Origin: an uncultured Thermotogae bacterium
Lineage (GTDB): Bacteria > Bipolaricaulota > Bipolaricaulia > UBA7950 > UBA9294
Reading direction: 5' to 3'
Assembly (NCBI GenBank): GCA_964620325.1
Contig: CAZUIM010000019.1
Coordinates: 1,142 to 40,166 of the forward strand
Length of the DNA: 39,025 bases
Shown here: one piece after another, positions 1 through 38,795 of the stretch
Layout: each line of letters starts with the position of its first letter
How positions within the stretch are numbered: position 1 is the stretch's first letter
Program-made: the position numbers and the translations under genes
Notes under the pieces: model-generated
Database searches by the model: none
Told to the model about the DNA's origin: nothing
Seen by the model: only the letters and a program-made list of their open reading frames with translations

Positions 1-360
1 CGTCGCCGACCTGGTTGGTGTCGGACTCGGGCGTCAGGGACAGGCGCAGGTCGATCCACGTCTTGGACGCGGGGTCGGCCGAGACGCTGGCGTCGGCGCC
101 GGCGACGGTGCCGTCGAACGACGCGTTCATCGTCAGCGTTCCGGGGGTGTTCGAGGTGAGCGTCTTGGTGGCGACGCCGCTCGTGTCGGTCGTCACCGTC
201 TCGCTGCCGCTCAAGATGCCGGCCCACTCGAAGTCGACGGCGGCGCCGGAGACGGGGGTCCACGTCGTGCCGTTGGTCGTCTGCTCGAGGGTGGCGGTAA
301 AGGTGTGATCGTCGCCGACCTGGTTGGTGTCGGACTCGGGCGTCAGGGACAGGCGCAGGT
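1..360 (-). repeat. Intragenic tandem domain repeat. An exactly identical 56-nt segment occurs at 1-56 and 305-360, a period of 304 bp (about 101 aa), within the adhesin gene.
   Basis: Direct comparison of 1-56 with 305-360 shows they are identical. Sequence diverges immediately after. Confidence 0.85.
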
Positions 361-2017
361 CGATGCCGGTGTAATGCGAGGAGTCCGCATCCGAGTATGG
401 ATCTCCGCGATACTGACCGGTCGCCGTTGCTTCGTTCGAGTACGGCCCCACCTCGGCGATTCCCGTTGCTCGATACGTCCACGTCTCTCCCGGGTCGAGC
501 ACATCATTGCCGTTCGTGTCGCCGGATTCGTAGAGAGGCGTGACTCCTTGGTCGTCGCTGACGGTGACGTCCTGCAGTCGAACGTCTCCCGAGTTGGTCA
601 CCTCGTAGACCCAAGTCACGGTGGCTCCGACGGCCACGTACGGACCGGGTGCCGCGTCAGCATCTTCTCCGTTTGTGAACTTCTCCACATCAATCGATGG
701 ATCTGGACACGCCGGTCCTGTGGTCGGCTTCGGGCAGACCTTCGTGCCCGCTTTGATGGCCGCTTCCACACTCCCCTCGGGCCAATACCCGTACAGCATC
801 AGAGTGAACGTTCTCGAGGATCCGACCTCGACGCCGCTGTCGAACTTGAGCCCCGTCACGCCGGTCGTCGGGTCGTACCCGTAGTCGACCGTGCCGGGGC
901 CGGTGCCTGAATAATCGATGTCGCCGCTCGTCACGCAACTTGGCAGACCGAGAATCCAATGGCTGGTCGCCGGGCTGGCGTTCGACGTGATCGTGTACGT
1001 AAAGACGGTCTTATCGGTAGCGGAGTTGTACGAACTCCCCTTGAAATCTATGATGTAGTTGGCGCATTCCGGCTCGACCACGGTGAGGAGAGCGGCCTGT
1101 GACTCGACCGTGCCGCAATCGGTGCTGATCCGAACAATGTAGTCCCCTTCGTCACTCTGGTCGACGTCGGTCAGCGTTAGCGTGTCCGTCGTGGAGCCGG
1201 AGACGCCGTTCCCATTGACGAGAAGCACTCCGTTCTTGTACCACTGGTAGGAGAGGCCGCTTCCTGTTGCCGAGACGGAGAAGACGACGTCCTCCGCCTC
1301 GTAGACGGTTGCGTCCTCCGGCTCATCGGTGATCTGCGGCTGGGTGCAGACGATCGTCAGTCTCCCGAAGACGTAGGCGACGTTGTCTCGGTCTTCTTTG
1401 GTGATGAAATAGCTGAGCGGGGTTCCGCCCCCGGCGCTGCTCGTGAATCCGAGGATCTCCAACGTGTACTTCGTGTCGTCGATCCAGAAGGTGTCCGATG
1501 TGCTTCCGGGGAACGTGACGCGATCGTAACATCCTTTGTAGTCGCCTCCGTACGGGCAGACGTTCCCAGGGTTGTCGTCCGGATCGTTCGGGGTCTCGTG
1601 AAATCCGAGAACGTATGTGAACTCCGGGTCGGGCGAAATCGCAGGGCTGTCGAAATGAAGGGTGATCTCCAATTCGACCTCCGTCGGCGCGTCTCCCATG
1701 ATCGGCTTGTTGTGGTGAGTGAACGTTCCGATGAGGAAGCTCTCACCCGAATCGAACGACTCGTTCGAGTTCCCGTCGAAGTCGAACCCGCTCCGACCTG
1801 AACCGGTCGACGTTCCCCACCGAATCTCGCTGGTGTTCAGTCCGGTGACCGACACGTCCGCATCTGTCCAGATGCCATTCGCCGTCGCAAGCTGGAAATC
1901 TGTGCCACTGGCGACGAAGGCCGAGAAGACCAGCGTCACAAGCGCAATGAGAACTACAGCTCCGGCCGTCTCCCCCCAGCTTCTACCCCGGGATGCCGCA
2001 GTCTGCCGCACAGCCAT
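1..2017 (-). CDS. Giant secreted surface/adhesin-like protein, N-terminal roughly 670 aa. The gene continues past window position 1. It has a signal peptide, a THHN-motif domain reminiscent of choice-of-anchor domains, an Ig-like (I-set) domain, a DUF11-like conserved repeat domain and tandem roughly 100-aa Big-like repeats.
   Basis: Manual reverse translation from the ATG at complement 2015-2017 gives MAVRQTAASRGRSWGETAGAVVLIALVTLVFSAFVASG... (signal/TM). A GGAGGA RBS lies 7 nt upstream. Recognisable motifs are FTHHNKPIMG, YQWYKNG...DEGDYIVRISTDCG (Ig-like) and VTWVYEVTNSGDV (DUF11-like), plus repeated IDLRLSLTPESDTNQVGDDHTFTATLEQ units. The frame remains open to position 1. It is absent from the ORF track only because no stop codon lies inside the window. 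High GC3. Confidence 0.7.
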   Translation of the reverse strand, partial: MAVRQTAASRGRSWGETAGAVVLIALVTLVFSAFVASGTDFQLATANGIWTDADVSVTGLNTSEIRWGTSTGSGRSGFDFDGNSNESFDSGESFLIGTFTHHNKPIMGDAPTEVELEITLHFDSPAISPDPEFTYVLGFHETPNDPDDNPGNVCPYGGDYKGCYDRVTFPGSTSDTFWIDDTKYTLEILGFTSSAGGGTPLSYFITKEDRDNVAYVFGRLTIVCTQPQITDEPEDATVYEAEDVVFSVSATGSGLSYQWYKNGVLLVNGNGVSGSTTDTLTLTDVDQSDEGDYIVRISTDCGTVESQAALLTVVEPECANYIIDFKGSSYNSATDKTVFTYTITSNASPATSHWILGLPSCVTSGDIDYSGTGPGTVDYGYDPTTGVTGLKFDSGVEVGSSRTFTLMLYGYWPEGSVEAAIKAGTKVCPKPTTGPACPDPSIDVEKFTNGEDADAAPGPYVAVGATVTWVYEVTNSGDVRLQDVTVSDDQGVTPLYESGDTNGNDVLDPGETWTYRATGIAEVGPYSNEATATGQYRGDPYSDADSSHYTGIDLRLSLTPESDTNQVGDDHTFTATLEQTTNGTTWTPVSGAAVDFEWAGILSGSETVTTDTSGVATKTLTSNTPGTLTMNASFDGTVAGADASVSADPASKTWIDLRLSLTPESDTNQVGD

Positions 2018-2066
2018 CGAATCCTCCTTGGAGTTGGCAACCCGGCAGCCTCCCGAGAGGTCCGCG

Positions 2067-2106
2067 GCTTTGCGTCCTGTTCTCACGAACAGTTTGCCCT
2101 TTTCAG
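2067..2106 (-). promoter_or_regulatory. Conserved upstream element, copy A: GCTTTGCGTCC-N14-GTTTGCCCTTTTCAG. It lies 50-90 nt upstream of the adhesin start. It is a putative operator/promoter, possibly the RHH regulator's binding site.
   Basis: A near-identical element is present at 2612-2651 upstream of the neighbouring RHH gene. The 15-mer GTTTGCCCTTTTCAG is identical in both copies. The GCTTTGCG(T/C)CC box is at the same spacing in both. TTTGC(G/C) units are reiterated. Confidence 0.5.
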
Positions 2107-2152
2107 CTCAATTCCTTCGAGTTCTCGTTACATCCTTTCCGTGTGCACTTCG

Positions 2153-2482
2153 TCAAGGGGTTGTGTGCTCGTTGTGTCGTCCCTGAATGATCAGAGCGCG
2201 CTCCACCGCCTCCGGCTCGACCAACCGCTCTTCGAGCAGGATATCACCGAGAAGCTTGTCGGTGAACTTGCTCTTCTGAAGCTCAAGGCCCTTCGCGAGA
2301 TCCACATGGCTGAGCACACCGAGGTCGACGAGGATTTCGCCGAGCCGCTTCTCGCGCTCGAAGTGCTTTTCGAGGATCGAAAGGATGACGGCGCTGCGGC
2401 TCTTCCGCTCACGACGTCCTTTCGCGTCGACCTGTTTCATCAGGTAGGCGTCCGCCTCGTTGTAGTAGATGGTCGTCTGCAC
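2153..2482 (-). CDS. Ribbon-helix-helix (CopG/Arc/MetJ-like) DNA-binding domain fused to a tandem MshEN-type c-di-GMP-binding motif. Putative c-di-GMP-responsive transcription factor.
   Basis: GTG start, with an AGGAAGGAG RBS 7 nt upstream. The N-terminal TTIYYNEADAYLMKQVDAKGRRERKSRSAVILSILEKHF fits an RHH beta-strand plus two helices. RLGEILVDLGVLSHVDLAKGLELQ matches the 24-residue MshEN motif RLGxx(L/V/I)(L/V/I)xxG(L/V/I)(L/V/I)xxxxLxxxLxxQ exactly. After a 5-residue spacer (KSKFT) comes a second copy, KLLGDILLEERLVEPEAVERALIIQ (G10 replaced by R). Confidence 0.75.
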   Translation of the reverse strand: MQTTIYYNEADAYLMKQVDAKGRRERKSRSAVILSILEKHFEREKRLGEILVDLGVLSHVDLAKGLELQKSKFTDKLLGDILLEERLVEPEAVERALIIQGRHNEHTTP

Positions 2483-2523
2483 GTTTCGGCTCCTTCCTCT
2501 TCGAACCGGCTTCCAAACGAAAA

Positions 2524-2554
2524 GGCCGGGTCCCAGTCACCCTGGTAACCCGGC
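2524..2554 (-). terminator. Intrinsic-terminator-like hairpin in the minus-strand leader of the RHH-MshEN gene. An 11-bp GC-rich interrupted stem is followed by CUUUUCGUUU. It is either a transcription attenuator or the 3' end of a small leader RNA.
   Basis: Minus-strand RNA: GCCGGGUUACCAGGGUGACUGGGACCCGGC CUUUUCGUUUGG. The stem pairs GCCGGGU with ACCCGGC, with an inner CCAG/CUGG pairing and a 5-nt loop. The U-tract is oriented for the minus strand only. It lies about 40 nt upstream of the RBS. Additional hairpins (GCGAGC-cgcguc-GCUCGC, a C(UUCG)G loop) lie further 5'. Confidence 0.45.
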
Positions 2555-2611
2555 TGCCATGAACTCTTACTCGAGTTCTCTCGCGAGCGACGCGGCTCGC
2601 GCAGGCCCGAA

Positions 2612-2651
2612 GCTTTGCGCCCCTACCTTGCGATAGGTTTGCCCTTTTCAG
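2612..2651 (-). promoter_or_regulatory. Conserved upstream element, copy B: GCTTTGCGCCC-N14-GTTTGCCCTTTTCAG. It lies 130-170 nt upstream of the RHH-MshEN gene and is flanked by AT-rich GTATAT repeats.
   Basis: See copy A. TTGC cores at 2615, 2628 and 2639 are spaced 11-13 bp apart. GTATAT at 2652 and GTATATAT at 2673 are rare AT-rich patches in a GC-rich genome. Confidence 0.5.
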
Positions 2652-2773
2652 GTATATGAACCAATGGCGACAAGTATATATGCCCCTCCAGTTCGTGTCA
2701 AGAGGCGGAAAGACACCAAGGAAAGGACCTTCTTTTGCATGTTCCATGGAATCGGTATGCAGTGCGCCGTCGA

Positions 2774-2803
2774 TTGCGGCTCGATCGACCTGTGATCTAT
2801 ACT
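2774..2803 (+). promoter_or_regulatory. Putative sigma70-type promoter of mutS: TTGCGG-N18-TATACT. The -10 element ends 11 nt before the ATG, so the mRNA is likely leaderless or near-leaderless.
   Basis: TTGCGG at 2774-2779 and TATACT at 2798-2803. No Shine-Dalgarno sequence precedes ATG 2814. Confidence 0.4.
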
Positions 2804-2813
2804 CGACGATACG

Positions 2814-5333
2814 ATGACGGCCGATCAGACTCCGATGATGAAGCAGTATCTGCGTTTCAAGGCCGAACACCCGGATGCCATCCTCTTCTTTCACTTGGGG
2901 GATTTCTACGAAGCGTTCTTCGAAGACGCAGAGACGCTCGCCCGGGAACTGGACATCGTCCTCACCTCGAGGAACGGCCATCCGATGGCCGGCGTTCCGA
3001 TCCGTCGAGGATCGGCCTACGTGAACCAGCTGTTGAAGAAGGGGTACAAGGTTGCGATCTGCGATCAGATCGAGGATCCGAAGAAGGCGCACGGGCTCGT
3101 CAAGCGGGATGTCGTTCGAATTGTCACGCCGGGGACCGCGCTCGACGAATCGGTTCTCGATCCGGGGGCGAACAACTACTTGGCCGCCGTGCATCGGCCG
3201 ACGGGACGTGAGACGATCGGTCTGTCGTTCGTCGATCTCTCCACCGGCGAGTTCATCTGCACGGCCGTGGCATCGCTCGCCGTCTGCCTCGGCGAAATCG
3301 AACGACAGGATCCGACGGAGGTTCTCCTGTCGTCGGCTGCATCGGACGATCTGAGGCGCCTCCTCTCGGAGCGGACGCTGACCGACCTTCCGCCGACCGC
3401 CTTCGTGGCGGCCGCTTCGGATGAGCTCGGTGTCGATGAGGCGGCTCTGCAGGCGGCCGGAGCGATCGCCGAGTACGTCGGAGCGACCCAGAAGGCGGCG
3501 CAGGTGCAGATGCGACCTCTGCGGGCGTATTCGGTCTCCGACCACGTCGATCTCGATCCATTCACTGTCACCAGTCTCGAGCTGGTGAAGCCGCTTCGAG
3601 ACGGGAAAGAACGAGGGACACTCCTCCACGTACTCGACGAAACGACGACGAGCATGGGGCGCCGACGTCTGCGACGGATGGTCCTCTCGCCCCTCACCGA
3701 CCGGGCGACCCTCGAGGAGCGGCTCGACGCGGTCGGCTCGATGGTCGAGGCGAGTCTGCTCCGCCAGGAGCTTCGCGACCGACTCAAAGACGTGCACGAT
3801 CTCGAGCGGCTGGCCGGGCGGCTCGGCGCCGGGCGATTCCATCCGCACGACTTGAGCGTTCTCCTGCGTTCTCTCGGTGCGATTCCTTCCGTTTGTCGGC
3901 TGATCGAGGAGGGGGGCGATCAAGATCGAAGCCGAACGTTCGCCCGTCTCCGCGACGCGATGGGCGACGCCGACGTCGGAGGGCTGACCGCACGGTACGG
4001 CTCCATGCTCGTCGACCAGCCGCCGGTCGACCCTCGAGACGGTGGACTCATCGAGAACGGCTACAGCCACGAACTCGATCGCTTACGGGACGAGACGCGA
4101 ACCCTGCGAGAGGCGTTGACGACCCTCGAGGCGGACGAGCGAGAGCGAACCGGGATTCCATCGCTCAAGGTCGGGTACAACAGGGTCTTCGGGTACTACA
4201 TCGAGGTGACCAGGCCTCATCTCGACAAGGTTCCCGAGGAGTACCGTCGCCGTCAGACGCTGGCGAATGCTGAGCGGTTCGTAACCGACGCCCTTCGCGG
4301 GATCGAGGAGAAGATCGCGCTCTCCGAAGAGCGGACGACCGCCCTCGAGGTGAAGCTCTTCGATGAAGCGGTCAACGCACTGGCTGAGAGGATCCCGCAG
4401 ATTCAAGCCGTCGCCGATGCACTCGCCGAGCTCGATGTGATCCTCGGGCTCGCCGACGTGGCGCATCGGAATGCGTACGTTCGGCCGTCGTTCACGGAGA
4501 AACACGCGCTGGTGATCCGCGGCGGTAGGCACCCGGTGGTCGAGCAAATCGAGGAATTCGTTCCGAACGATCTCGATCTCTCCGACGGCCGAGATCTGGT
4601 GATTCTGACCGGGCCAAACATGGCCGGAAAGTCGGTCTTCCTCCGCCAGACGGCGCTGATCTCACTGATGGCGCAGATCGGCTCGTTCGTCCCCGCCTCC
4701 GAGGCGAGGCTTCCGATCGTCGAGAGCATCTTCGCCCGCGTCGGAGCGAGCGACATGCTCGTTGCCGGGGTGAGCACGTTCATGATGGAGATGCTCGAGG
4801 TCGCTGCCATCCTCGAGCGTGCCACGTCGCGCAGTCTGATCATTCTCGACGAGATGGGGAGAGGGACGAGCACGTTCGACGGTGTCTCAATCGCGTGGGC
4901 GGTCGCCGAGGAGTTGGCTCGCAAGGTTCGAGCGAAAACCCTCTTCGCTACGCACTACCAAGAGATGACGCGTCTCGCCGACGAGGTTCCGAACGTCGTC
5001 AATCTGCACGTCGCCGTCAAGGAGGTCGGCTCCGAGATCGTCTTCCTCCACCGCGTCGAGCCGGGGACAGCGGCCGGGAGCTACGGGGTGCACGTCGCCC
5101 GCCTCGCCGGCCTGCCGCAACACGTCACTGAGGCGGCAGATCGGATTCTCGCGGAGCTCCTCGCCGACGCTCCGCTCTCCGAGCTCGGCGGGGGGCAAGT
5201 CGCGGAGCGGATCCCGCTGTTCGGGGCGGAGGACCACCCGATCGTGCAGCGGCTTCGTCGACTCGATCCGAATCGGATGACGCCGCTCGAGGCGCTCGAG
5301 ACACTGGCCGAGTTGATCGAGGAGGCGGAGTGA
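2814..5333 (+). CDS. mutS: DNA mismatch repair protein MutS
   Basis: The N-terminus MMKQYLRFKAEHPDAILFFHLGDFYEAFFEDA is the canonical MutS mismatch-recognition domain. Walker A (GPNMAGKS) and DE(M/L)GRGTSTFDG motifs are present. 839 aa. Confidence 0.95.
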   Translation: MTADQTPMMKQYLRFKAEHPDAILFFHLGDFYEAFFEDAETLARELDIVLTSRNGHPMAGVPIRRGSAYVNQLLKKGYKVAICDQIEDPKKAHGLVKRDVVRIVTPGTALDESVLDPGANNYLAAVHRPTGRETIGLSFVDLSTGEFICTAVASLAVCLGEIERQDPTEVLLSSAASDDLRRLLSERTLTDLPPTAFVAAASDELGVDEAALQAAGAIAEYVGATQKAAQVQMRPLRAYSVSDHVDLDPFTVTSLELVKPLRDGKERGTLLHVLDETTTSMGRRRLRRMVLSPLTDRATLEERLDAVGSMVEASLLRQELRDRLKDVHDLERLAGRLGAGRFHPHDLSVLLRSLGAIPSVCRLIEEGGDQDRSRTFARLRDAMGDADVGGLTARYGSMLVDQPPVDPRDGGLIENGYSHELDRLRDETRTLREALTTLEADERERTGIPSLKVGYNRVFGYYIEVTRPHLDKVPEEYRRRQTLANAERFVTDALRGIEEKIALSEERTTALEVKLFDEAVNALAERIPQIQAVADALAELDVILGLADVAHRNAYVRPSFTEKHALVIRGGRHPVVEQIEEFVPNDLDLSDGRDLVILTGPNMAGKSVFLRQTALISLMAQIGSFVPASEARLPIVESIFARVGASDMLVAGVSTFMMEMLEVAAILERATSRSLIILDEMGRGTSTFDGVSIAWAVAEELARKVRAKTLFATHYQEMTRLADEVPNVVNLHVAVKEVGSEIVFLHRVEPGTAAGSYGVHVARLAGLPQHVTEAADRILAELLADAPLSELGGGQVAERIPLFGAEDHPIVQRLRRLDPNRMTPLEALETLAELIEEAE

Positions 5334-6274
5334 ACGGCGGAGCGGAGATCCATCGCCCCGTTCTGACGACCGAGGTCGTTCGTCTCCTCTCTGGGCTTCC
5401 GAAGCCGACGGTCGTCGATGGGACGATCGGGCTCGGGGGACACGCAGAGGCGATCCTCGAAGGGAAGGCCGACACGCGCGTGATCGGGATCGATCGGGAC
5501 GAAGGGGCACTCGCGATCGCGGAGGCGCGTCTGGCCCGGTTTGGAGATCGGGTTCAGCTCGTTCACGGAGACTTCGTGGACGTCGCGGTGCATCTCGCTC
5601 GACTCGGTGTCGAGACGGTCGGAGGGCTGCTTCTTGACATCGGCGTCTCGTCGTTCCAACTCGACGATCCGGAGAGAGGCTTCAGCTTCCGACGTGACGG
5701 GCCACTCGATATGAGGATGGATCCGTCGGCCGGCAGCCCGGCCTCGGCCTGGCTCTCGACGGTTCGAGAAGACGAGCTGGCGGCTGCGTTGTGGTCGTAC
5801 GGCGAGGAACGATACGCGCGGCGGATCGCCCGGGAGATCGTCCGGGCCCGCGTGTCCGACGCGATTCTGACGACCGGCGCGCTGCGCCGGGTCGTCCACC
5901 GGGCCGTTCCGAATCGATACTTCGATGGCCCGATCGATCCGGCGACGCGGACGTTCCAGGCGATTCGGATCGTCGTCAATCGTGAACTCGCGAGTCTCGA
6001 GCGAGGACTGGAGACCGGCTTCGCCGTTCTCGCACGCGGCGGGGTCCTCGTTGTCATCTCGTTTCACTCACTCGAGGATCGGATCGTCAAGCGGTTTCTT
6101 CGCGAACGTGCGGCCGATTGCATCTGTCCGCCGGAACTTCCCGAATGCATGTGCGACAAGCAGATCGAGGCCGAGATCCTGACGCGGCGTCCGATGGTCC
6201 CGGACGCGGACGAGGTCGCCCGAAACCCGAGGGCCCGAAGCGCGAAACTCCGCGCGGGGAAGAAGGTCGTCTAG
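5330..6274 (+). CDS. rsmH: 16S rRNA (cytosine1402-N4)-methyltransferase RsmH (MraW)
   Basis: GTG start overlaps the mutS stop (GTGA). A GAGGAGG RBS is present. Motifs include GGHAEAIL, DIGVSSFQLD, FHSLEDRIVK and a C-terminal NPRARSAKLR. Confidence 0.9.
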   Translation: MNGGAEIHRPVLTTEVVRLLSGLPKPTVVDGTIGLGGHAEAILEGKADTRVIGIDRDEGALAIAEARLARFGDRVQLVHGDFVDVAVHLARLGVETVGGLLLDIGVSSFQLDDPERGFSFRRDGPLDMRMDPSAGSPASAWLSTVREDELAAALWSYGEERYARRIAREIVRARVSDAILTTGALRRVVHRAVPNRYFDGPIDPATRTFQAIRIVVNRELASLERGLETGFAVLARGGVLVVISFHSLEDRIVKRFLRERAADCICPPELPECMCDKQIEAEILTRRPMVPDADEVARNPRARSAKLRAGKKVV

Positions 6275-6338
6275 TTCGGGTTCCAACACGACAGCTGTCC
6301 GTCTCCGGTGATCCGGGGTCGACTACGCTCACGAGGAG

Positions 6339-6680
6339 ATGTTGCACCGCGGTCGAAACCGTACGGTGGAAGGTGAACGGTCGCGGCGCCGGGGGGCGAG
6401 AGTTCCGAGCCGATGGATCGCGCTTTCCGGCGTCACGACCCTCATTGTCGGCCTCTGCTTCCTCTATGTCCTTCAGGCAACGGCTCTTCGCAGTCTGACC
6501 GCGGAATGCGAGCAGGCTCGCGACGAACTCGTGCGCGTGGAGGAGGTCAACCTCACACTCGAATTTGAGATCGAACAGGCGTTCTCGCTGGAGCGAGTCT
6601 CAAGAATCGCTCGAGAGCGCCTCGGTATGGTCGAACCTTCGGTGGTCAGATATGTCCCCGTTCCTGCGTCGGAAGACTAG
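6339..6680 (+). CDS. ftsL: Cell division protein FtsL-like (septum formation initiator)
   Basis: ATG with an ACGAGGAG RBS. It has one TM helix (WIALSGVTTLIVGLCFLYVL), then a coiled coil and an ERVSRIARERLGM motif. Its position between rsmH and ftsI matches dcw-cluster synteny. Confidence 0.6.
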   Translation: MLHRGRNRTVEGERSRRRGARVPSRWIALSGVTTLIVGLCFLYVLQATALRSLTAECEQARDELVRVEEVNLTLEFEIEQAFSLERVSRIARERLGMVEPSVVRYVPVPASED

Positions 6681-8424
6681 CGATTCGACGACCCGTCGCC
6701 GTGGTCGCGTGGTCGCGGCGATCCTCATCCTCTGTGCAATGGCCGTGGTCGGACGGCTGCTGCAGCTTCAGATCATCGACGGAAGTCAATGGCGTGCGCT
6801 CGCTGCGTCGGTCCAGGAGCGAACCCTCGATCTCCCCCCGAGACGCGGTGCGATTCTCGACCGGGACGGGACCCCGCTCGCGTTCGACGTGAAGGCGACA
6901 GCGATCGCCGTCGACGGGTTCAACATGACCAAGCCGGAGACGCTGGTGACGATCTTGGCCGACGAACTCGATCGCTCCGAGGCCGAGATCTCAGATCTGG
7001 TCTATCGGTCGAGCTATTTCACATGGGTCGATCGTTCCGCGCCGCTCGATGCGGCGCAGCGGATCGAGGAGCGTGCTGCGGATGCCGGAGCCTACGGGCT
7101 GATCTTCTTCGACACCTGGAAACGGTGCTATCCACAGGGGCGATTGGCGTCGAACGTGATCGGCTTCGTCGGTACGGACGGAAGCGGTCTCGAGGGGATC
7201 GAGCTCTCCTTCGACGAGACCCTTCGGGGGGTCCCGAAGCGAGTGCGAGTCGTCGAAGGCGCAGACGGTCGCACCTACCAGACGGACGTGATCGATCCGG
7301 GGAGGCCGGGGGAGGACGTTGTCCTTACGCTCGACGCCGATCTCCAATTCATCTGTGAGGACGAGATCGAGGCGGGCGTCTCGCGCTTCCGGGCCGCCGC
7401 CGGCGTGATTGTCGCCGTCGACCTGAGCACCGGCGAGGCTCTGGCGATGGCACAGGACAAGGGATACGACCTGAACGAGTTCCAGTCATCGACCCTGGTA
7501 GAGCGAAGAAACCTGGCCGTGGCAGCGATCTTCGAGCCTGGGTCGATCTTCAAGGTCTTCGCCGGCCTGGCGGCGCTCGAGGCCGGCATTGTCGGGGTCG
7601 ATGACACGTTCGACGGAAACGACGGGATCGCGATCGGCGGACACGTCATGCACAACGCCGATCGGGTCGACTACGGGACCGTGACGTTCGGACAGACGAT
7701 CGAGGACTCGGTGAACACGGCGATGATCCAGGTGGCCCTTCGCCTCGGCGAGGAGGGGCTCCGCTCGTATCTCGCGGACCTCGGATTCGGTCGGCGGACC
7801 GAGATCGGGCTTCCCGGAGAGGAGGCCGGGATTCTGCGTCCGGCCGCTGTGTGGTCGTCGCTCGACTTGGCCGCAGCCTCGATCGGCCAGTCGGTCGCGG
7901 TGACGGCGATCCAGCTCACCCGAGCGCTCGCCTGTGTTGCCAACGACGGGATTCTTCCCGAGGTGAGCATCGTGCGGCACGGGGAGGTCGGCGCTGGAAG
8001 TCGCGTCGCGACCGAGGAATCGACGGCGACGATGCTCGAGCTGATGACGCGGGTCGTCGAGTCCGGGACCGGAACGCTCGCTGCGATCGACGGGTTCACG
8101 ATCGCCGGAAAGACGGGGACGGCGCAGAAGGCGACGAGCGAACGTGGCTACGCCGACGGGAAGTACACATCCCTGTTTGCCGGCTGTCTTCCGGCCGAGG
8201 ATCCACACGTCGTGATCCTCGTCGTCCTCGACGAGGTCGGCACGACGCCGGTCTCAGGCGGATACACCGCGGGGCAGATCTTCCAAGAGACGGCGACGAG
8301 GATGATTCACGCCGAACGACTGGCATCGACGACATCGGACACCTATGAGCCTCGGAGCCACGCTCCGGCGACGAGCGTTGAAGGGCGTGTGCTGAGCGGG
8401 GAGGAGCTGTTCGGGCGACACTAG
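6652..8424 (+). CDS. ftsI: Peptidoglycan D,D-transpeptidase FtsI (class B penicillin-binding protein)
   Basis: An N-terminal TM anchor is followed by a PBP dimerisation domain. Transpeptidase motifs SIFK (SxxK), SVN (SxN) and KTGTA (KTG) are present. The start was chosen at ATG 6652, overlapping the ftsL end. The ORF-track start at 6565 is less likely. Confidence 0.9.
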   Translation: MSPFLRRKTSDSTTRRRGRVVAAILILCAMAVVGRLLQLQIIDGSQWRALAASVQERTLDLPPRRGAILDRDGTPLAFDVKATAIAVDGFNMTKPETLVTILADELDRSEAEISDLVYRSSYFTWVDRSAPLDAAQRIEERAADAGAYGLIFFDTWKRCYPQGRLASNVIGFVGTDGSGLEGIELSFDETLRGVPKRVRVVEGADGRTYQTDVIDPGRPGEDVVLTLDADLQFICEDEIEAGVSRFRAAAGVIVAVDLSTGEALAMAQDKGYDLNEFQSSTLVERRNLAVAAIFEPGSIFKVFAGLAALEAGIVGVDDTFDGNDGIAIGGHVMHNADRVDYGTVTFGQTIEDSVNTAMIQVALRLGEEGLRSYLADLGFGRRTEIGLPGEEAGILRPAAVWSSLDLAAASIGQSVAVTAIQLTRALACVANDGILPEVSIVRHGEVGAGSRVATEESTATMLELMTRVVESGTGTLAAIDGFTIAGKTGTAQKATSERGYADGKYTSLFAGCLPAEDPHVVILVVLDEVGTTPVSGGYTAGQIFQETATRMIHAERLASTTSDTYEPRSHAPATSVEGRVLSGEELFGRH

Positions 8425-8427
8425 CCG

Positions 8428-10275
8428 CTACCGCCGCAGGTGGATGGCGAGGATCGAGAGATCGGCCTGGGAGACGCCGGGAACGCGGGTCGCCTGTCCG
8501 AACGATCGAGGTCGGACGCGAGCCAGGAGATCTCGGCCTTCGATCGAAATGCCTTCGAGCGCGCGAAAGTCGACGTCGGCCGGGATGGCCAGGGACTCCA
8601 TTCGTCGGAGCCGCTCGATCTGTCGCTCTTGCTGTTCGAGATAGCCGGCGTACTTCCCGGCGATCTCCGCCTCGAGGAGAACGTCGCCGGAGAGCCCGTC
8701 TGGTTCCACCAGATCCTCGATGCGCACGTGCGGACGCCGTAGGAGGTCGAACAGCGAGGTGCCGTTCTTCGAAAGTGCTGAGCTCCCTCTCTCGGCCAGA
8801 CGGGTGTTCAGTGGATCGCTCGGCCCGACGCGCGTTTCGACCATTCGATCGATGAGCCGTTCGATCGATCGCCGTCGTTCGAGGAAGCGTTCGTACTTCT
8901 CGTCAGAGAGGAGGCCGATCGTGTGTCCGAGATCGCAGAGCCGGAGATCGGCGTTGCCCTCGCGGAGTGTGATCCGGTATTCGGCCCGTGACGGGAGCAT
9001 CCGATACGGCTCGGTGATCCCTTTGGTGACGAGATCGTCGACGAGGACTCCGGCGAACGCCTGTCCGCGATCGAGAATCAAGGGAGGTTCTCCTCGGAGT
9101 CGGCGGACGGCGTTCACTCCGGCGAGGAGGCCGAGGGCGGCCGCCTCCTCGTAACCGGTCGTTCCGATGATCTGGCCGGCGAGGTAGAGGCCGGAGATTC
9201 CATCGACTTGAAGGGACGCGTCGACGTGGAGCGGATCGACGTGGTCGTACTCGATGTTGTACCCATACCGCTCGATCTGTGCTCGTTCCAGCCCGCGAAT
9301 CGAACGGACGATTCGATCCTGGATCTGCGGGGAGAAGGCGGTGTAGATCCCCTGGAGATAGACCTCCGGCCGGTTTCGCCCCTCCGGTTCGCAGAAGACC
9401 TTGTGCGAGGTCCGCTCGGGGAAGCGGACGATCTTCGTCTCTAATGAGGGGCAGTGGCGTGGACCGACGCCGTTCATCAGACCGTTGTAGTTTGCGCTCC
9501 GGTCGAGACTTGTCGCGATGATCGCGTGCGTCCGGGGGTTCGTATGCGTCACGTGGACAGGGAAGTTGTCAGGGAGGACCTGCGGAGTCGACCAGAAGGA
9601 GAAGGCGAGCGGGCGCTCGCTCGTTGCCTGTCGTTCGAGGGTCGTTGTGTCGATCGAGTCTCTGGTGACGCGGGGTGGTGTTCCGGTCTTCATCCGGCGC
9701 AATCGGAGACCGAGATTTCGTAGCGCTCGAGCGAGATCGATCGACGGCGGCTCACCTGCCCGGCCGGCTGGGTGGGCCTCGCGACCGAGAAGGATCCTTC
9801 CGTTCAGGAACGTGCCGGCGCAGACGATGACGGCCTTCGCCTTCAACGTCCGACCGTCCTGCAGGCGAACGCCTTCCACACGGCGGCTTCGTACGACGAG
9901 TTCATCGACGCACGCCTCGACGACGTCAAGAGATTCCTCGCCCGCGAGGATCTCCTTCCACGCGAGCTCATACGTGTCACGATCGGCTTGGGCGCGACGG
10001 ACCTGCATCGCCGGCCCCTTGCTCGAGTTCAGGATGCGGATGTGAATCGCCGCGGCGTCGGCGACGCGGGCCATCTGGCCGCCGAGCGCATCGATCTCGC
10101 GAACGAGCTGTGATTTTCCCGGCCCGCCGATCGCAGGATTGCAGGGCATCTTCCCGATCTCGGAGCGACGCATCGTGACCAGTGCCGTCTCGGCGCCGAG
10201 ACGGCTTGAAGCGACGGCCGCTTCGCATCCGGCGTGGCCGGCGCCGACCACGACGACGTCGTAGTAGCTCATCAC
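8428..10275 (-). CDS. mnmG: tRNA uridine 5-carboxymethylaminomethyl modification enzyme MnmG (GidA)
   Basis: The N-terminus YDVVVVGAGHAGCEAA is an FAD-binding fold. A GTGTPPR-like segment is present. 615 aa, typical for MnmG. Confidence 0.95.
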   Translation of the reverse strand: MMSYYDVVVVGAGHAGCEAAVASSRLGAETALVTMRRSEIGKMPCNPAIGGPGKSQLVREIDALGGQMARVADAAAIHIRILNSSKGPAMQVRRAQADRDTYELAWKEILAGEESLDVVEACVDELVVRSRRVEGVRLQDGRTLKAKAVIVCAGTFLNGRILLGREAHPAGRAGEPPSIDLARALRNLGLRLRRMKTGTPPRVTRDSIDTTTLERQATSERPLAFSFWSTPQVLPDNFPVHVTHTNPRTHAIIATSLDRSANYNGLMNGVGPRHCPSLETKIVRFPERTSHKVFCEPEGRNRPEVYLQGIYTAFSPQIQDRIVRSIRGLERAQIERYGYNIEYDHVDPLHVDASLQVDGISGLYLAGQIIGTTGYEEAAALGLLAGVNAVRRLRGEPPLILDRGQAFAGVLVDDLVTKGITEPYRMLPSRAEYRITLREGNADLRLCDLGHTIGLLSDEKYERFLERRRSIERLIDRMVETRVGPSDPLNTRLAERGSSALSKNGTSLFDLLRRPHVRIEDLVEPDGLSGDVLLEAEIAGKYAGYLEQQERQIERLRRMESLAIPADVDFRALEGISIEGRDLLARVRPRSFGQATRVPGVSQADLSILAIHLRR

Positions 10276-12485: not shown

Positions 12486-12583
12486 CCGGGAGCGTTTGTC
12501 TGCCGTTCGGGTAACCGACTCGCCGACCGGGCGGTACGTCGATGACCTCGCCACAAACGTACCGAGGGCACACTCGCCTCACC

Positions 12584-15514
12584 ATGCGAAGGATCCACTG
12601 TCTGCGGTCGTTGTCGGCCGTCGCCGCTTTCGTCTGTCTGGTTAGCCTGTCTGCCGACGCGACCGTTTCGATCTCGCTCTCTGCGGATCCGATCCCGGTC
12701 GCGCGGGGGGAGGATCTGAACTACGCGATCACAATCGAGAACCACGGTCCGGGCCCGATCGCCGACGCGACCCTCTACGTCCCGCTACCCGCGGGGATCG
12801 ACCAGTTGGCCGCCGAGGTCCGTGTCGAGGGCGGAGGCTGGGAACCGTATCCGCCGAACGGTCTCGTCCCCCTCGCGCCGCTTCCGGTCGATGAGCGGCG
12901 AGGCTTCGAGATCCGTGGGCGGGTGGAGCTGGGTGCGCCCGGGCGCTTGGCGACGACGGCACAGATCGTTTCGCCCTCTGGACCTCTGGCCGAGGAGTCT
13001 CTCGCGGTCAACGTTCTCCCTTCGGTCGATGCGGGACCCGATCTGATTGTCGAGCTCGGTGGAGCGGTGCACCTTGTCGGCTGCTCGGCCGACGATGGCG
13101 GAGACGGGATCGCGACGCTCGCGTGGTCCGACGACGGCGCGGGGGGGGCGTTCGACGATTCGGCGATTCTGCATCCGATTTACACCCCATGTGCGGCTAG
13201 CGGCCTCGTCGACCTGACCCTGTCCGTCAGCGACCACGACGGCGACGAGGCGAGCGACTCACTTCGCGTACGTGTCAACGAACTGCCGGTCGTCTACGCC
13301 GGGGACGATCGCATCACGCGACAATCAGCGTCGGTCGGTCTGGACGACGCGACGGCCTCCGATGCCGACGGGTGGATCGTCGAGTACACGTGGTCGGACG
13401 GTGGCGCCGGGGGGAGGTTCTCGCCGTCGGCCGATGTCTTTCATCCGACCTACGCGGTTCCGATGGTCGACCCGTGCGGCAACGGAGAGATCGAGTTGAC
13501 GTTGACCGCCGTCGACGATTGGGGCGGTGAGGCGGCCGACTCACTTTGGATCGTCGTGAGGAACCCGAATCGGCCGCCCTGCGTGGACGCCGGGGACAGC
13601 CTGACGGTCGAGAGCGGCGCGACGGTCACTCTGGACGGAGTTGCGACCGATCCGGACGGCGTCCTCGACGTCGTTGTGTGGGATCAGACGGGGGGGACGA
13701 CCGTCGCCATCACCGGGTCGAGCGCGACGGTCGAGTTTGTCGCTCCGGAGGTCGATGTCGTCGAGGAACTGAGGTTCCAGCTTCGGGCGGTCGACGGGTG
13801 CGGCGTCGTGGCGACCGACGAGATGACCGTGACCGTGGAGCCCGTGCCGACGTTCGGGGGCGAGCTCCGTCTCGCCGTCTCCATCGCCGCGTTCGATTCC
13901 TGGGGACTTCCGCTCTCGCCGCTCGACGTGCTCTCCGGCGGGGACGAGGTCCGGTTGGTGGTCGAGGTGCGGAACGTCGGCGACGGGCGGCTCGTCGACT
14001 TGCAGGGATGGACCGGCATGGGAGAGGACCTCGTCTTCGGGAAGGTCGAGCTTGGCCCGTGGGAGGCCGCTCGGGCGGAGTTCTTCCACTGCATCGAGCC
14101 CGGGACGCTCGACGAGCGGGTCGAACTCGGCGTCGAGGTCTCGGCAAGCGGCCCGAAGGGTGAACGGATCGTGGCCGACGATTCGATCGTCCTCGCCGTC
14201 CGGGAGCCGGTCGAGGCCCTCTCCCTCGAGAAACGGGTCGACGCCGCCGAGGCGGCCGTCGGAGAGACCATCGTTTACACGTACGCGATTCGAAACGTCG
14301 GCGGCTCGAACGTTTCGGGGATCGCCCTGGTCGATGATCGACTCGGATCGATCTCGCTTCCGCGGACGACTCTCGCTTCGGGGGAGAGCCTGACCGTCGC
14401 GGTCGAGTACATCGTTTCCGAGTCGGACGTCCCGGGGCCGCTCGTCAACACGGCGCAGCTGACCGGATTCGGGGTCTCCGGTGTGAGAACGCAAGTCGAT
14501 TCGGTCGCGTCGGTCGCGGTCGTCACGGCCGGTGAGGGCGGCGCCGGCGGGAGTTCCGCGGCGCCCACTGACGGTAGATTCCGGTCCGTCGTCATCAGTG
14601 AAGTCGCTTGGGGGGGAACATCGCATGACGCGGCCGACGAGTGGATCGAGCTGGTCAATCTGACGGATCGGCCGATCGACCTCGGCGGCTGGAGCCTTCG
14701 TTGGCGGGGCAGCTCGTCGGGCGGGCTCTGGCGATCGATCGACCTCGCAGGGACGATCGATCCGCTTCCCGTTCCGTTGACCGACTCCGTCGACGAGCTC
14801 GGTCGTCTCGCCTCCGTCCGCGAGGACGAGGGCTGGAGAGTCTTCGACCTTTCGTGGTGGAACGTCGGGAAGCGCGACGGCGACGGACGAGGGTTCTACG
14901 TTCTCGAGCGCGGCAGCGACGAGACGATCGCCGACCTGGCGGCCGACCTCGTCTACGGCGCCGACGAGACGTTCGCGCTCCCCGACGACGGGACGACCCT
15001 CTACCTGCACGCGCCGGACGGGACACTCGTCGATACTGCGAACGCGTCGTCGGCCTCAGGCTGGTCGGCCGGGGACGGTCGAAGCGGAGCAACGATGGAG
15101 CGGGTCAACCTCCTTCGCGCGGACGAGATAGGGAATTGGCAGACGAATCCGGGAATTCTGACCAATGGACGCGACGCGGCCGGGAGTCGACTCGTGGCGA
15201 CGGCCGGGAGGCCGAACTCGCCGAGCTTGGAGACACTGACCGTCTACGCTGCTTCGAAGGTTCCGGCGATCCGGGTCGACGCGGCGACGGAGGTTCCGAT
15301 TCCACTCGACGGATCGATCCGAGTCACGGTCGCCGAGGCGGGCGAGCCCTCGGGGGGCGGGGGGAGTTCGGTCGCCGGGCCGATCGTCACACGCCGGACG
15401 GAGAACGCCACGTGGTTCGTGTTCGACCCGGAGCGGTGGCCGGCCGGGACGGTCTGCGTTTGGGTCGTCTGTGCAGAAAGCACCTACTTGATCCCTTTGG
15501 TGCGGGGAGACTGA
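12584..15514 (+). CDS. Large secreted multidomain protein (976 aa). It has a signal peptide, an N-terminal DUF11-like domain, internal paired repeats (WSDDGAGGAFD... and WSDGGAGGRFS...) and a lamin-tail domain (LTD).
   Basis: Signal peptide MRRIHCLRSLSAVAAFVCLVSLSADA. The LTD signature is FRSVVISEVAWGG...DEWIELVNLTDRPIDLGGWSLRW. The start was chosen at ATG 12584. The upstream in-frame start at 12542 is less likely. Confidence 0.75.
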   Translation: MRRIHCLRSLSAVAAFVCLVSLSADATVSISLSADPIPVARGEDLNYAITIENHGPGPIADATLYVPLPAGIDQLAAEVRVEGGGWEPYPPNGLVPLAPLPVDERRGFEIRGRVELGAPGRLATTAQIVSPSGPLAEESLAVNVLPSVDAGPDLIVELGGAVHLVGCSADDGGDGIATLAWSDDGAGGAFDDSAILHPIYTPCAASGLVDLTLSVSDHDGDEASDSLRVRVNELPVVYAGDDRITRQSASVGLDDATASDADGWIVEYTWSDGGAGGRFSPSADVFHPTYAVPMVDPCGNGEIELTLTAVDDWGGEAADSLWIVVRNPNRPPCVDAGDSLTVESGATVTLDGVATDPDGVLDVVVWDQTGGTTVAITGSSATVEFVAPEVDVVEELRFQLRAVDGCGVVATDEMTVTVEPVPTFGGELRLAVSIAAFDSWGLPLSPLDVLSGGDEVRLVVEVRNVGDGRLVDLQGWTGMGEDLVFGKVELGPWEAARAEFFHCIEPGTLDERVELGVEVSASGPKGERIVADDSIVLAVREPVEALSLEKRVDAAEAAVGETIVYTYAIRNVGGSNVSGIALVDDRLGSISLPRTTLASGESLTVAVEYIVSESDVPGPLVNTAQLTGFGVSGVRTQVDSVASVAVVTAGEGGAGGSSAAPTDGRFRSVVISEVAWGGTSHDAADEWIELVNLTDRPIDLGGWSLRWRGSSSGGLWRSIDLAGTIDPLPVPLTDSVDELGRLASVREDEGWRVFDLSWWNVGKRDGDGRGFYVLERGSDETIADLAADLVYGADETFALPDDGTTLYLHAPDGTLVDTANASSASGWSAGDGRSGATMERVNLLRADEIGNWQTNPGILTNGRDAAGSRLVATAGRPNSPSLETLTVYAASKVPAIRVDAATEVPIPLDGSIRVTVAEAGEPSGGGGSSVAGPIVTRRTENATWFVFDPERWPAGTVCVWVVCAESTYLIPLVRGD

Positions 15515-37329: not shown

Positions 37330-37815
37330 CTGCGCGCGTCAAGCGGCGGGTTCAGAGATCAGCGATGATGGACTGAAATAGACGGTGTCCGCAGAGGGGG
37401 AAAGGAAAATCGGCGCTTCGAATAACGGGGCATGCCATCGAGGTGCAGCGGTGCACGACACGCAACTTCGTAGTCAGGACTCCCGCTGCTCGGAGGAGCA
37501 GGGTCAAGTCTTGCAATGCAATATGAGTGACAGCTGGGATTCGCTAGATGCTAGTGCTGCAGTGCAAGACCTCGTATCTTGGCGGGGCGTCGTAGCTGTC
37601 GTGCATCTCTGGACTGAGTCGGATGGAGATGCTCGCGGGTGGGCAGATCGGGCAAGACCGGAACGACGAAGTCGTCAGTTCGCGGGTCAGATGGACCGCC
37701 CTCCCACAAGCCAGGACAGCATCAAGAGCGCAGCTCGCGCTGCAGCTCGTGTTTACGAGGTCAGGCTGGAGAGGGCAGCCCACACGAACTCTCCATCACT
37801 CTAGGATGACGGAGG
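37330..37815 (+). ncRNA. Candidate IS110-type bridge/guide ncRNA region (structured 5' non-coding arm of the IS)
   Basis: IS110-group elements encode their bridge RNA in the left arm upstream of the transposase (established knowledge). Here stems are visible, for example CTGCTC-ggag-GAGCAG (37481-37496) and GTCTTGCA...TGCAAGAC (37509-37571, 8-bp arms). The ORF-track ORF at 37385-37804 has poor coding character. Confidence 0.35.
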
Positions 37816-37820
37816 TTCCG

Positions 37821-38795
37821 ATGAACTGTATCGGTGTCGATGTCAGCAAGCAAGAGCTGGTCACCTTCGACGGTAGCAAGGAGCGGATCTTCCCCAACAC
37901 GAGTGGGCTAGCCGAGTTCGGTCGATTCCTCAAGCGATCGAAGGATGCGCTGGTGGTGTTCGAGCCGACGAGCACGTACTCACGCAGGCTGGAGGCGTTG
38001 TGCAGAGCGCAGCGCATCACGTGCTGTCAACTGAATCCACGTGTGGTTCCGCATCTGCGTCAAGTAGGCAAGGGACGCTCGAAGACGGACAGCACGGATG
38101 CAGAACTCCTGTATCGCTACGGGATCGAGCGCGGACACAGCGAAGCAACTCCACTCGAGAACGACGCACTGGCTGAATCGATCCAGGCGCGGCTCGCCTG
38201 CTACCGCGTGGCCCAGAAGGGGCGTGTTGCCTACCAGAACGTGTTCGAGGCGTTGAGCCAGGATCCGGAGACATCGGGAGCGCTGCTCGCTGAGCTTCGG
38301 ACGGAGATCTCCGAGCTGAAGAAGAAGGAGAAGCAGCATCTCGATGCGGCACAGCAGCTCGTCGAGGAAGATGAAGAGATCTCACAACGACTGAACGCGC
38401 TCCTCTCGATTCCCGGCGTTGGCCCGATCATCGCACTGACGCTCCTCGCGCTGTTCCGCAAGTACGCTGACGTGAATCGGGGCCAGATCGTCGCGCTGGC
38501 CGGATTCGACCCGATTCAGGTGCAATCTGGAACGTCAGTTCACGGGAAGAGCCGGATCAGCAAGCGTGGGAACCGAGAGGTCCGCAAGCGTCTGTTCGAA
38601 GCGACGTTGTCTGCCGCTCGCTACAACCCGAGCATCCGCGCGATCTACCGACGGCTAAAGGAAGCAGGGAAGCCGGAGAAGGTGGCGAGGATCGCAGCGG
38701 CGCGGAAGCTGCTACTGATTGCCCATGCTATCTACAAGAGCGGGGATCCCTACCGCGATCCGAACGTCGAGCATGAGTTCCGTAGGAACTCGTAA
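37821..38795 (+). CDS. IS110-family transposase (DEDD/RuvC-like N-terminal domain plus Transposase_20 C-terminal domain)
   Basis: ATG 37821 with a GGAGGT RBS 5 nt upstream. MNCIGVDVSKQELV...FEPTSTYSRRL (DEDD). C-terminal LSIPGVGPIIALTLLA...AGFDPIQVQSGTSVHGKSRISKRGNREVRKRL. Confidence 0.85.
   Translation: MNCIGVDVSKQELVTFDGSKERIFPNTSGLAEFGRFLKRSKDALVVFEPTSTYSRRLEALCRAQRITCCQLNPRVVPHLRQVGKGRSKTDSTDAELLYRYGIERGHSEATPLENDALAESIQARLACYRVAQKGRVAYQNVFEALSQDPETSGALLAELRTEISELKKKEKQHLDAAQQLVEEDEEISQRLNALLSIPGVGPIIALTLLALFRKYADVNRGQIVALAGFDPIQVQSGTSVHGKSRISKRGNREVRKRLFEATLSAARYNPSIRAIYRRLKEAGKPEKVARIAAARKLLLIAHAIYKSGDPYRDPNVEHEFRRNS

Follow-up and report, generated by a model that had tools for sequence, protein, structure and literature searches.

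In a 39,025-nucleotide stretch of DNA from an uncultured bacterium of the Bipolaricaulota (contig CAZUIM010000019.1; hereafter the window), a repeat of about 40 bp lies upstream of two consecutive minus-strand genes, one encoding a protein of 109 amino acids (aa) and the other an adhesin-like surface protein. We are confident that both repeats are the 5' halves of canonical class-I riboswitch aptamers for c-di-GMP (cyclic dimeric guanosine monophosphate), also called GEMM-I, borne on minus-strand transcripts. The factor shared by the two genes is most likely c-di-GMP sensed directly by RNA, and not a protein bound to DNA. This corrects the annotation of a preliminary description, in which the conserved parts of the repeat were operator boxes: the boxes are riboswitch cores, and c-di-GMP is likely the direct signal at both sites. 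The RNA class is already known and is detectable at standard Rfam thresholds. What may be new is the cassette, conserved in Bipolaricaulota, of promoter, riboswitch, gene for a ribbon-helix-helix (RHH)-MshEN protein, riboswitch and surface protein gene. A literature search on MshEN with RHH, on Bipolaricaulota with c-di-GMP and on riboswitch feed-forward circuits found no account of it.

Two c-di-GMP-I aptamers in the window

The repeat has the form GCTTTGCGYCC-N14-GTTTGCCCTTTTCAG and matches exactly two sites in the 39-kb window, both on the plus strand (2067-2106 and 2612-2651). Allowing up to three mismatches adds no further site, with none expected from 100 shuffles. As first described, the 15-mer GTTTGCCCTTTTCAG is the same in both copies, and each copy lies 5' of a minus-strand open reading frame (ORF), the adhesin-like ORF (ATG at 2017) or the 109-aa ORF (2482..2153). 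The 15-mer has no other occurrence in the window.

A scan of the whole window against Rfam at gathering thresholds returned exactly two matches, both on the minus strand, both covering the full model and both belonging to the c-di-GMP-I clan; two further matches of the same clan above threshold were masked by clan competition. Riboswitch 2, upstream of the 109-aa gene, occupies 2540..2652 (RF03167, 63.8 bits, E 5.7e-13) and holds the copy at 2612-2651. Riboswitch 1, upstream of the adhesin gene, occupies 2032..2107 (RF03167, 62.9 bits, E 1.1e-12) and holds the copy at 2067-2106. A purpose-built covariance model (CM) scores riboswitch 1 at 79.7 bits and riboswitch 2 at 70.6 bits, and all 21 modelled pairs of riboswitch 2 are canonical. 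These elements, of 76 and 113 nt, are longer than the 40-bp repeat, which makes up just the 5' half of the aptamer; the second helix and the closing P1 helix follow on its 3' side. The second helix of riboswitch 2 is enlarged by a branched insertion of about 40 nt with two extra hairpins (approximately 2601..2561, minus strand), and this insertion accounts for the apparent end of the repeat.

Selection on the boxes, proposed on first inspection, is borne out. They form the ligand-pocket core of the riboswitch. Reverse-complemented, the repeat boxes GCTTTGCG and GTTTGCCC read CGCAAAGC and GGGCAAAC; these two sequences make up the base of the first hairpin and bear the equivalents of the ligand contacts A47 and G20. 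The 14-nt spacer between the boxes, which had been taken as unconserved, is in fact constrained: on the minus strand it forms a perfect 6-bp hairpin in both copies, with compensatory differences between them and a GNRA loop. The two hairpins read CUGUUC-GUGA-GAACAG in riboswitch 1 (2092..2077) and CCUAUC-GCAA-GGUAGG in riboswitch 2 (2637..2622).

These features match those of the type examples of RF01051, Vc2 and Vc1 of Vibrio cholerae: two hairpins that a short P1 closes, the first of them capped by a GNRA loop, a GGCAAAC / CGCAAAGC core and location in the 5' untranslated region. As in Vc2, Vc1 and Bc1, the equivalents of G20, A47 and C92 are present with a G-to-A spacing of 27 nt, and the interhelical C and G are kept. 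Unlike the type examples, the elements described here come from a Bipolaricaulota host, riboswitch 2 has the 40-nt branched insertion at the tip of its second helix, and the tetraloops are mostly GYRA and not GAAA.

G20, A47 and C92 (Vc2 numbering) contact the ligand in Vc2, Vc1 and Bc1, with 27 nt between the G and the A (PMC4744006, PMC11218506). We mapped these positions through the Rfam alignment and the 27-nt G-to-A spacing of Vc1 and Bc1, and aligned first 28 and then 78 related aptamers. The pocket nucleotides are G 2098 (G20), A 2071 (A47) and C 2037 (C92) in riboswitch 1, and G 2643, A 2616 and C 2545 in riboswitch 2, all on the minus strand. Among the related aptamers, the G20 equivalent is G in 77/78, the A47 equivalent is A in 77/78 and the C92 equivalent is C in all 77. 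The interhelical C44-G83 pair is likewise retained (C44 equivalent in 74/77, G83 equivalent in 73/75), and 74 of the 78 have a GNRA loop on the first hairpin. From these alignments we conclude that both window copies have the sequence of canonical c-di-GMP sensors, neither the A47G variant nor the A20 type that senses cGAMP. Position 20 has a role in the choice between cGAMP and c-di-GMP (PMC9481103). A riboswitch for c-AMP-GMP (3',3'-cGAMP), GEMM-Ib, was considered and rejected, as it needs A at position 20, where both copies and 77/78 relatives have G.

Some points weigh against this reading. The host is an uncultured Bipolaricaulota lineage, and the best-scoring Rfam model for both window copies is not RF01051, whose score for them is masked by clan competition in Rfam, but the c-di-GMP-I-GGC variant RF03167. 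If both aptamers belonged to this variant, their pocket would be altered, and their preference for the ligand might be weaker or of another kind. RF03167 is the top model for both copies (63.8 and 62.9 bits, gathering score 59) and for 28 of 40 orthologous aptamers in related genomes. Its consensus (...ACGCGAAgCc...) has G where both window copies have A, at the A47 equivalent; going by the consensus, we take this to be the G that defines RF03167 and read 'GGC' as G20/G47/C92. That position is A, not the consensus G, in both copies and in 77/78 relatives. The window scores exceed the RF03167 threshold by only 4-5 bits. The other 12 of the 40 orthologues fall to RF01051, and orthologous copies score 50-70 bits on that model (gathering score 35). 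Since orthologues flip between the two families, the score does not discriminate and the choice of model is a scoring quirk. We consider it quite unlikely that the copies are GGC variants, and treat both as c-di-GMP aptamers.

Conservation and covariation across Bipolaricaulota

Close homologues of the 109-aa protein number in the hundreds; few come with a source name, and these are mostly Candidatus Bipolaricaulota (Acetothermia). Taking one genome per species, we gathered 52 loci with a full-length homologue. Of the first 20 loci, to which Rfam was applied, 18 have the gene flanked by aptamers on either side; of the two exceptions, L012 lost its downstream copy at a contig end and L021 has the upstream aptamer only. 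With 28 of these aptamers as its basis, our own CM detected 78 across the loci, and in the window only the two already known. An upstream aptamer is present in 31/52 loci, ending 41-78 nt before the start codon of the gene, and a downstream aptamer in 27/52, starting 22-263 nt past its stop codon. Both sides carry one in 26/52 loci and in all 18 of the closest relatives.

The structure is preserved through sequence change. In a MAFFT alignment, 93.8% of cells are paired and both partners have changed in 13 of 21 pairs, a level not attained by any of 500 shuffles; pairing in slid controls is 24-49%. In the larger, model-fitted alignment 94.7% are paired, with double changes in 17/21 pairs. All six pairs of the first hairpin, formed by the spacer, covary, and its G-U pairs can form on the minus-strand transcript only.

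This conservation bears on whether the repeat could be a dispersed repeat or the remnant of a mobile element, with no regulatory role. A duplication of about 40 bp and an IS110 transposase elsewhere in the window would fit such an origin. Against it, position and orientation beside the same gene are kept across 31 species, the covariation preserves structure, the expression platforms described below are conserved, and 39 kb holds just two copies. The preliminary description had held that many unrelated copies would mark the motif as a dispersed repeat; the two copies in the window are both riboswitches, a count that does not decide the case. Taking these points together, we find a non-regulatory repeat scarcely credible, and retain the riboswitch interpretation.

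Several related loci carry more aptamers than the window does. Six of them (L032, L034, L035, L037, L041 and L044) have a third c-di-GMP-I aptamer on the same strand, some 1.2 kb further upstream; that of L034 occupies 2635-2709 and precedes an ORF at 2708-3790 that encodes a 360-aa secreted subtilisin-like protease. Loci with the third aptamer have three riboswitch-gated genes in succession. True tandem (doublet) aptamers occur upstream of the RHH-MshEN homologue in L005 (3667-3947), L007 (3750-3948) and L020 (3693-3942). Some cassette loci are labelled as organisms other than Bipolaricaulota (L026 Gemmatimonadaceae, L035 Coriobacteriia, L040 Caldisericota, L049 Fraserbacteria and several 'Thermotogae'). 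These labels probably reflect mis-binning or outdated names and not the true distribution.

The cassette is found in dozens of species, and the locus offers a first view of c-di-GMP signalling in this uncultured phylum. The genes that the riboswitches would regulate, for an MshEN-type receptor and for surface proteins, suit c-di-GMP biology.

A conserved promoter and two expression platforms

A sigma-70-type promoter, TTGACA-17 nt-TATACT, lies on the minus strand at 2673..2701 and matches 11/12 consensus positions, against 0.2 such matches expected in shuffles. The end of its -10 hexamer is 20 nt away from the upstream aptamer. A CTTGACA-17-TATA(G/C)T promoter, near consensus and conserved across Bipolaricaulota, stands at the equivalent positions in L003-L046, and the 20-nt distance is identical in about 29/32 related loci. 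The short leader between promoter and upstream aptamer contains a semi-conserved CACTTAGTTC. In distant loci (L032, L034, L035, L037, L041, L044 and L046), though not in the window, a GGGACA-N3-TGTCCC palindrome occurs just 5' of the -35 hexamer, some 5-20 nt from it; a protein, possibly RHH-MshEN itself, could use this palindrome as an operator.

The preliminary description had read the repeat as a DNA operator of the RHH-MshEN protein, serving autoregulation and co-regulation of the adhesin, or else as a shared unusual promoter. That a regulatory signal is common to both genes is upheld by our analysis. The promoter alternative is not supported: the conserved promoter precedes the element, which is thus transcribed. 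An operator has in its favour that the repeat is upstream of both genes, that an RHH half able to bind DNA is plausible for the protein, and that in copy 2 TTGC recurs at intervals of 11-13 bp (2615, 2628 and 2639), as had been claimed for the repeat in general. Copy 1 lacks this periodicity, having two TTGC 24 bp apart, and the middle TTGC of copy 2 is the reverse complement of the GCAA tetraloop. Other evidence also argues against an operator. The start of the element lies 20 nt past the -10 of the conserved promoter, and on the sense strand the element matches c-di-GMP-I covariance models from end to end. Through compensatory and G-U changes the spacer covaries in the manner of an RNA helix, and the conserved unit runs 36-73 nt past the repeat, into the second helix. 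A full explanation is available without any protein, and nothing requires a protein to bind this DNA. An operator or unusual promoter therefore seems to us very improbable.

As riboswitches, the two elements appear to have different expression platforms. That of riboswitch 2 (2515..2554, minus strand) is an intrinsic terminator hairpin, GCCGGGUUaCCAGggugaCUGGgACCCGGC (2554..2525), followed by CUUUUCGUUU (2524..2515). The 3' strand of the aptamer, GCCGGGUUACCAG, doubles as the 5' half of the terminator hairpin, which is present in the free minimum-free-energy (MFE) fold (-23 kcal/mol by itself) and gone when the aptamer is enforced. Overlap with a terminator and a U-tract are found in all 31 upstream copies. 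Folding thus predicts riboswitch 2 to be a transcriptional ON switch: c-di-GMP would stabilise the aptamer, block termination and turn on the RHH-MshEN gene.

The platform of riboswitch 1 (2015..2061, minus strand) involves translation initiation. Between the end of the aptamer and the adhesin ATG lie 14 nt, and the Shine-Dalgarno (SD) sequence AAGGAGGA (2029..2022), together with the ATG (2017..2015), can pair with ACCUCUCGGGA (2061..2051), which is the 5' strand of the second helix of the aptamer (ACCUCU...). In the free MFE the GGAGG core, like the start codon, is paired with this strand (probability of being unpaired across the core 0.00-0.18); enforcing the aptamer opens the SD on the whole (0.17-0.94). 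The SD is sequestered in all 18 downstream copies tested, where it lies 5-12 nt after the aptamer and is paired either to the 5' strand of the second helix or to the 3' strand of P1. Riboswitch 1 is accordingly modelled as a translational ON switch. Without ligand, the adhesin ribosome-binding site would pair with the aptamer strand; c-di-GMP would free it and turn on adhesin translation.

The two riboswitches probably act in series on one transcript. Downstream aptamers are not preceded by a conserved promoter (mean best match 7.3/12, against 11.3/12 upstream), and a consensus scan listed no terminator after the 109-aa gene; given both absences, a single transcript is probable. Adhesin expression would then need c-di-GMP twice.

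Several observations count against these switching directions and against co-transcription. The simple consensus terminator scan did not list the riboswitch 2 terminator, which has a bulged stem and was identified by folding. Even with the riboswitch 1 aptamer enforced, two GGAGG positions out of five remain paired for the most part (probability of being unpaired 0.17 and 0.28). The ON direction rests on thermodynamic folding, and enforcing the aptamer costs 18-23 kcal/mol of stability relative to the free MFE. With OFF folds favoured to this extent, the switches would have to act co-transcriptionally, under kinetic or ligand-driven control. As to the single transcript, a weak promoter-like TTGACG-18-TGTAAC, the best match there, precedes riboswitch 1 in the window; relatives show no conserved promoter at this place.

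A precedent for the proposed output is Bc2 of Bacillus thuringiensis, an ON riboswitch of the c-di-GMP-I class that lies upstream of a collagen-adhesion protein, and c-di-GMP-I riboswitches arranged in tandem have been described (PMC11218506, PMC9481103). Riboswitch 1 resembles Bc2 in being a c-di-GMP-I riboswitch predicted to turn on an adhesin-type surface protein. The likeness to tandem systems lies in several aptamers bearing on one gene, with true tandems upstream in the three related loci named above. Unlike in Bc2 and the tandem systems, the two aptamers here do not share one leader but have a whole gene between them; one would control termination, the other the initiation of translation. 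The locus may offer a natural case of two riboswitches for the same ligand working at different levels, possibly within one operon.

The 109-aa protein, the adhesin gene and their neighbourhood

The 109-aa gene (2153..2482, minus strand) starts with GTG, preceded by the SD AAGGAG at 2495..2490, and encodes a putative RHH N-terminal half and an MshEN-type C-terminal half. Pfam gave no match to the protein, even at E up to 10, and for this reason the MshEN assignment rests on sequence and fold searches of the PDB. In the sequence search, residues 41-103 match Thermus PilF in its GSPII-C domain, which binds c-di-GMP (E about 2e-10), and other PilB N-domains, and the protein matches MshE at E 0.003-0.015. 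An AlphaFold2 model (AF2; predicted local confidence, pLDDT, 77) places the C-half on ligand-bound GSPII-B and MshE at 1.1-1.4 A root-mean-square deviation over 55-59 residues. The MshEN-like half seen on first inspection is thereby substantiated.

The MshEN consensus consists of two tandem 24-residue motifs, RLGxx(L/V/I)(L/V/I)xxG(L/V/I)(L/V/I)xxxxLxxxLxxQ, in a four-helix fold (PMC5013675). The corresponding motifs of the four-helix module are RLGEILVDLGVLSHVDLAKGLELQ (motif I) and LLGDILLEERLVEPEAVERALIIQ. Motif I, RLGEILVDLGVLSHVDLAKGLELQ, fits the 24-residue consensus perfectly; motif II deviates at two conserved positions, 1 (Leu) and 10 (Arg). Leu at position 1 is also found in GSPII-B, which binds with 6 nM affinity (PMC11731258). 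Like the MshEN/GSPII domains of V. cholerae MshE and Thermus thermophilus PilF (GSPII-B and -C), the 109-aa protein has two 24-residue motifs in tandem, within its C-terminal 55-60 residues. Unlike them, it has the four-helix module only, without the rest of the domain of about 145 aa or the ATPase, and fused to a putative RHH half. The MshEN assignment of the C-half is supported by these comparisons, and the protein itself probably binds c-di-GMP.

RHH domains of the CopG/Arc/MetJ kind have a beta-strand at the N-terminus, ahead of two helices, and build a dimeric ribbon that binds DNA. In the AF2 model, residues 1-8 are unstructured and are followed by helices at 9-25 and 29-44. Foldseek matches of the N-half to CdbA and CopG are weak (probability 0.3-0.5, E above 4), and a few JGI entries call homologues of the 109-aa protein CopG family. 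An RHH assignment of the N-half is plausible. CdbA is a ribbon-helix-helix c-di-GMP receptor of Myxococcus xanthus (PMC7156744). The 109-aa protein is like CdbA in being a small, putatively RHH-type protein tied to c-di-GMP, with a weak structural match in the N-half (Foldseek probability about 0.5). It is unlike CdbA, which has no MshEN module, in that its ligand would sit in a separate C-terminal module.

We nominate the RHH-MshEN protein as a candidate for a new class of c-di-GMP effector. More tentatively, and with doubt outweighing conviction, we suggest that it may be an undescribed c-di-GMP-responsive transcription factor, an RHH domain joined to a minimal MshEN, that is itself riboswitch-gated and shares an operon with a riboswitch-gated adhesin. 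If this were true, one second messenger would be read three times, by RNA, RNA and protein, in a conserved Bipolaricaulota circuit giving a feed-forward, sharply thresholded commitment to surface attachment.

The adhesin-like gene (1..2017, minus strand) runs off the window from its ATG at 2017. Its product has an N-terminal signal or anchor, an I-set Ig domain, DUF7507 and Big_1-like repeats. In the related loci, the ORF after the downstream aptamer bears a signal or anchor in 18 of 25 called ORFs (none was called in L009), and many of these ORFs exceed 1,200 aa and are partly homologous. Inside the adhesin gene of the window, a near-identical stretch of about 55 nt occurs at 1-60 and 301-360, 300 nt apart, reflecting tandem Ig-like (Big_1-like) domains that end in ...LRLSLTPESDTNQVGD. 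A second large surface protein is encoded at 12542-15514 on the plus strand, with DUF11, PKD, DUF7507 and lamin-tail domains. It has no c-di-GMP aptamer upstream, so not every adhesin-like gene here is riboswitch-controlled.

An IS110-family transposase gene with DEDD_Tnp_IS110 and Transposase_20 domains lies at 37623-38795 (plus strand). By inspection of the translations only, the plus-strand housekeeping genes beside the cassette, at 2814-8424, look like mutS (divergent from the riboswitch promoter), rsmH, an ftsL-like gene and one for an ftsI-type penicillin-binding protein, and the minus-strand gene at 8428-10275, judged in the same way, looks like mnmG.

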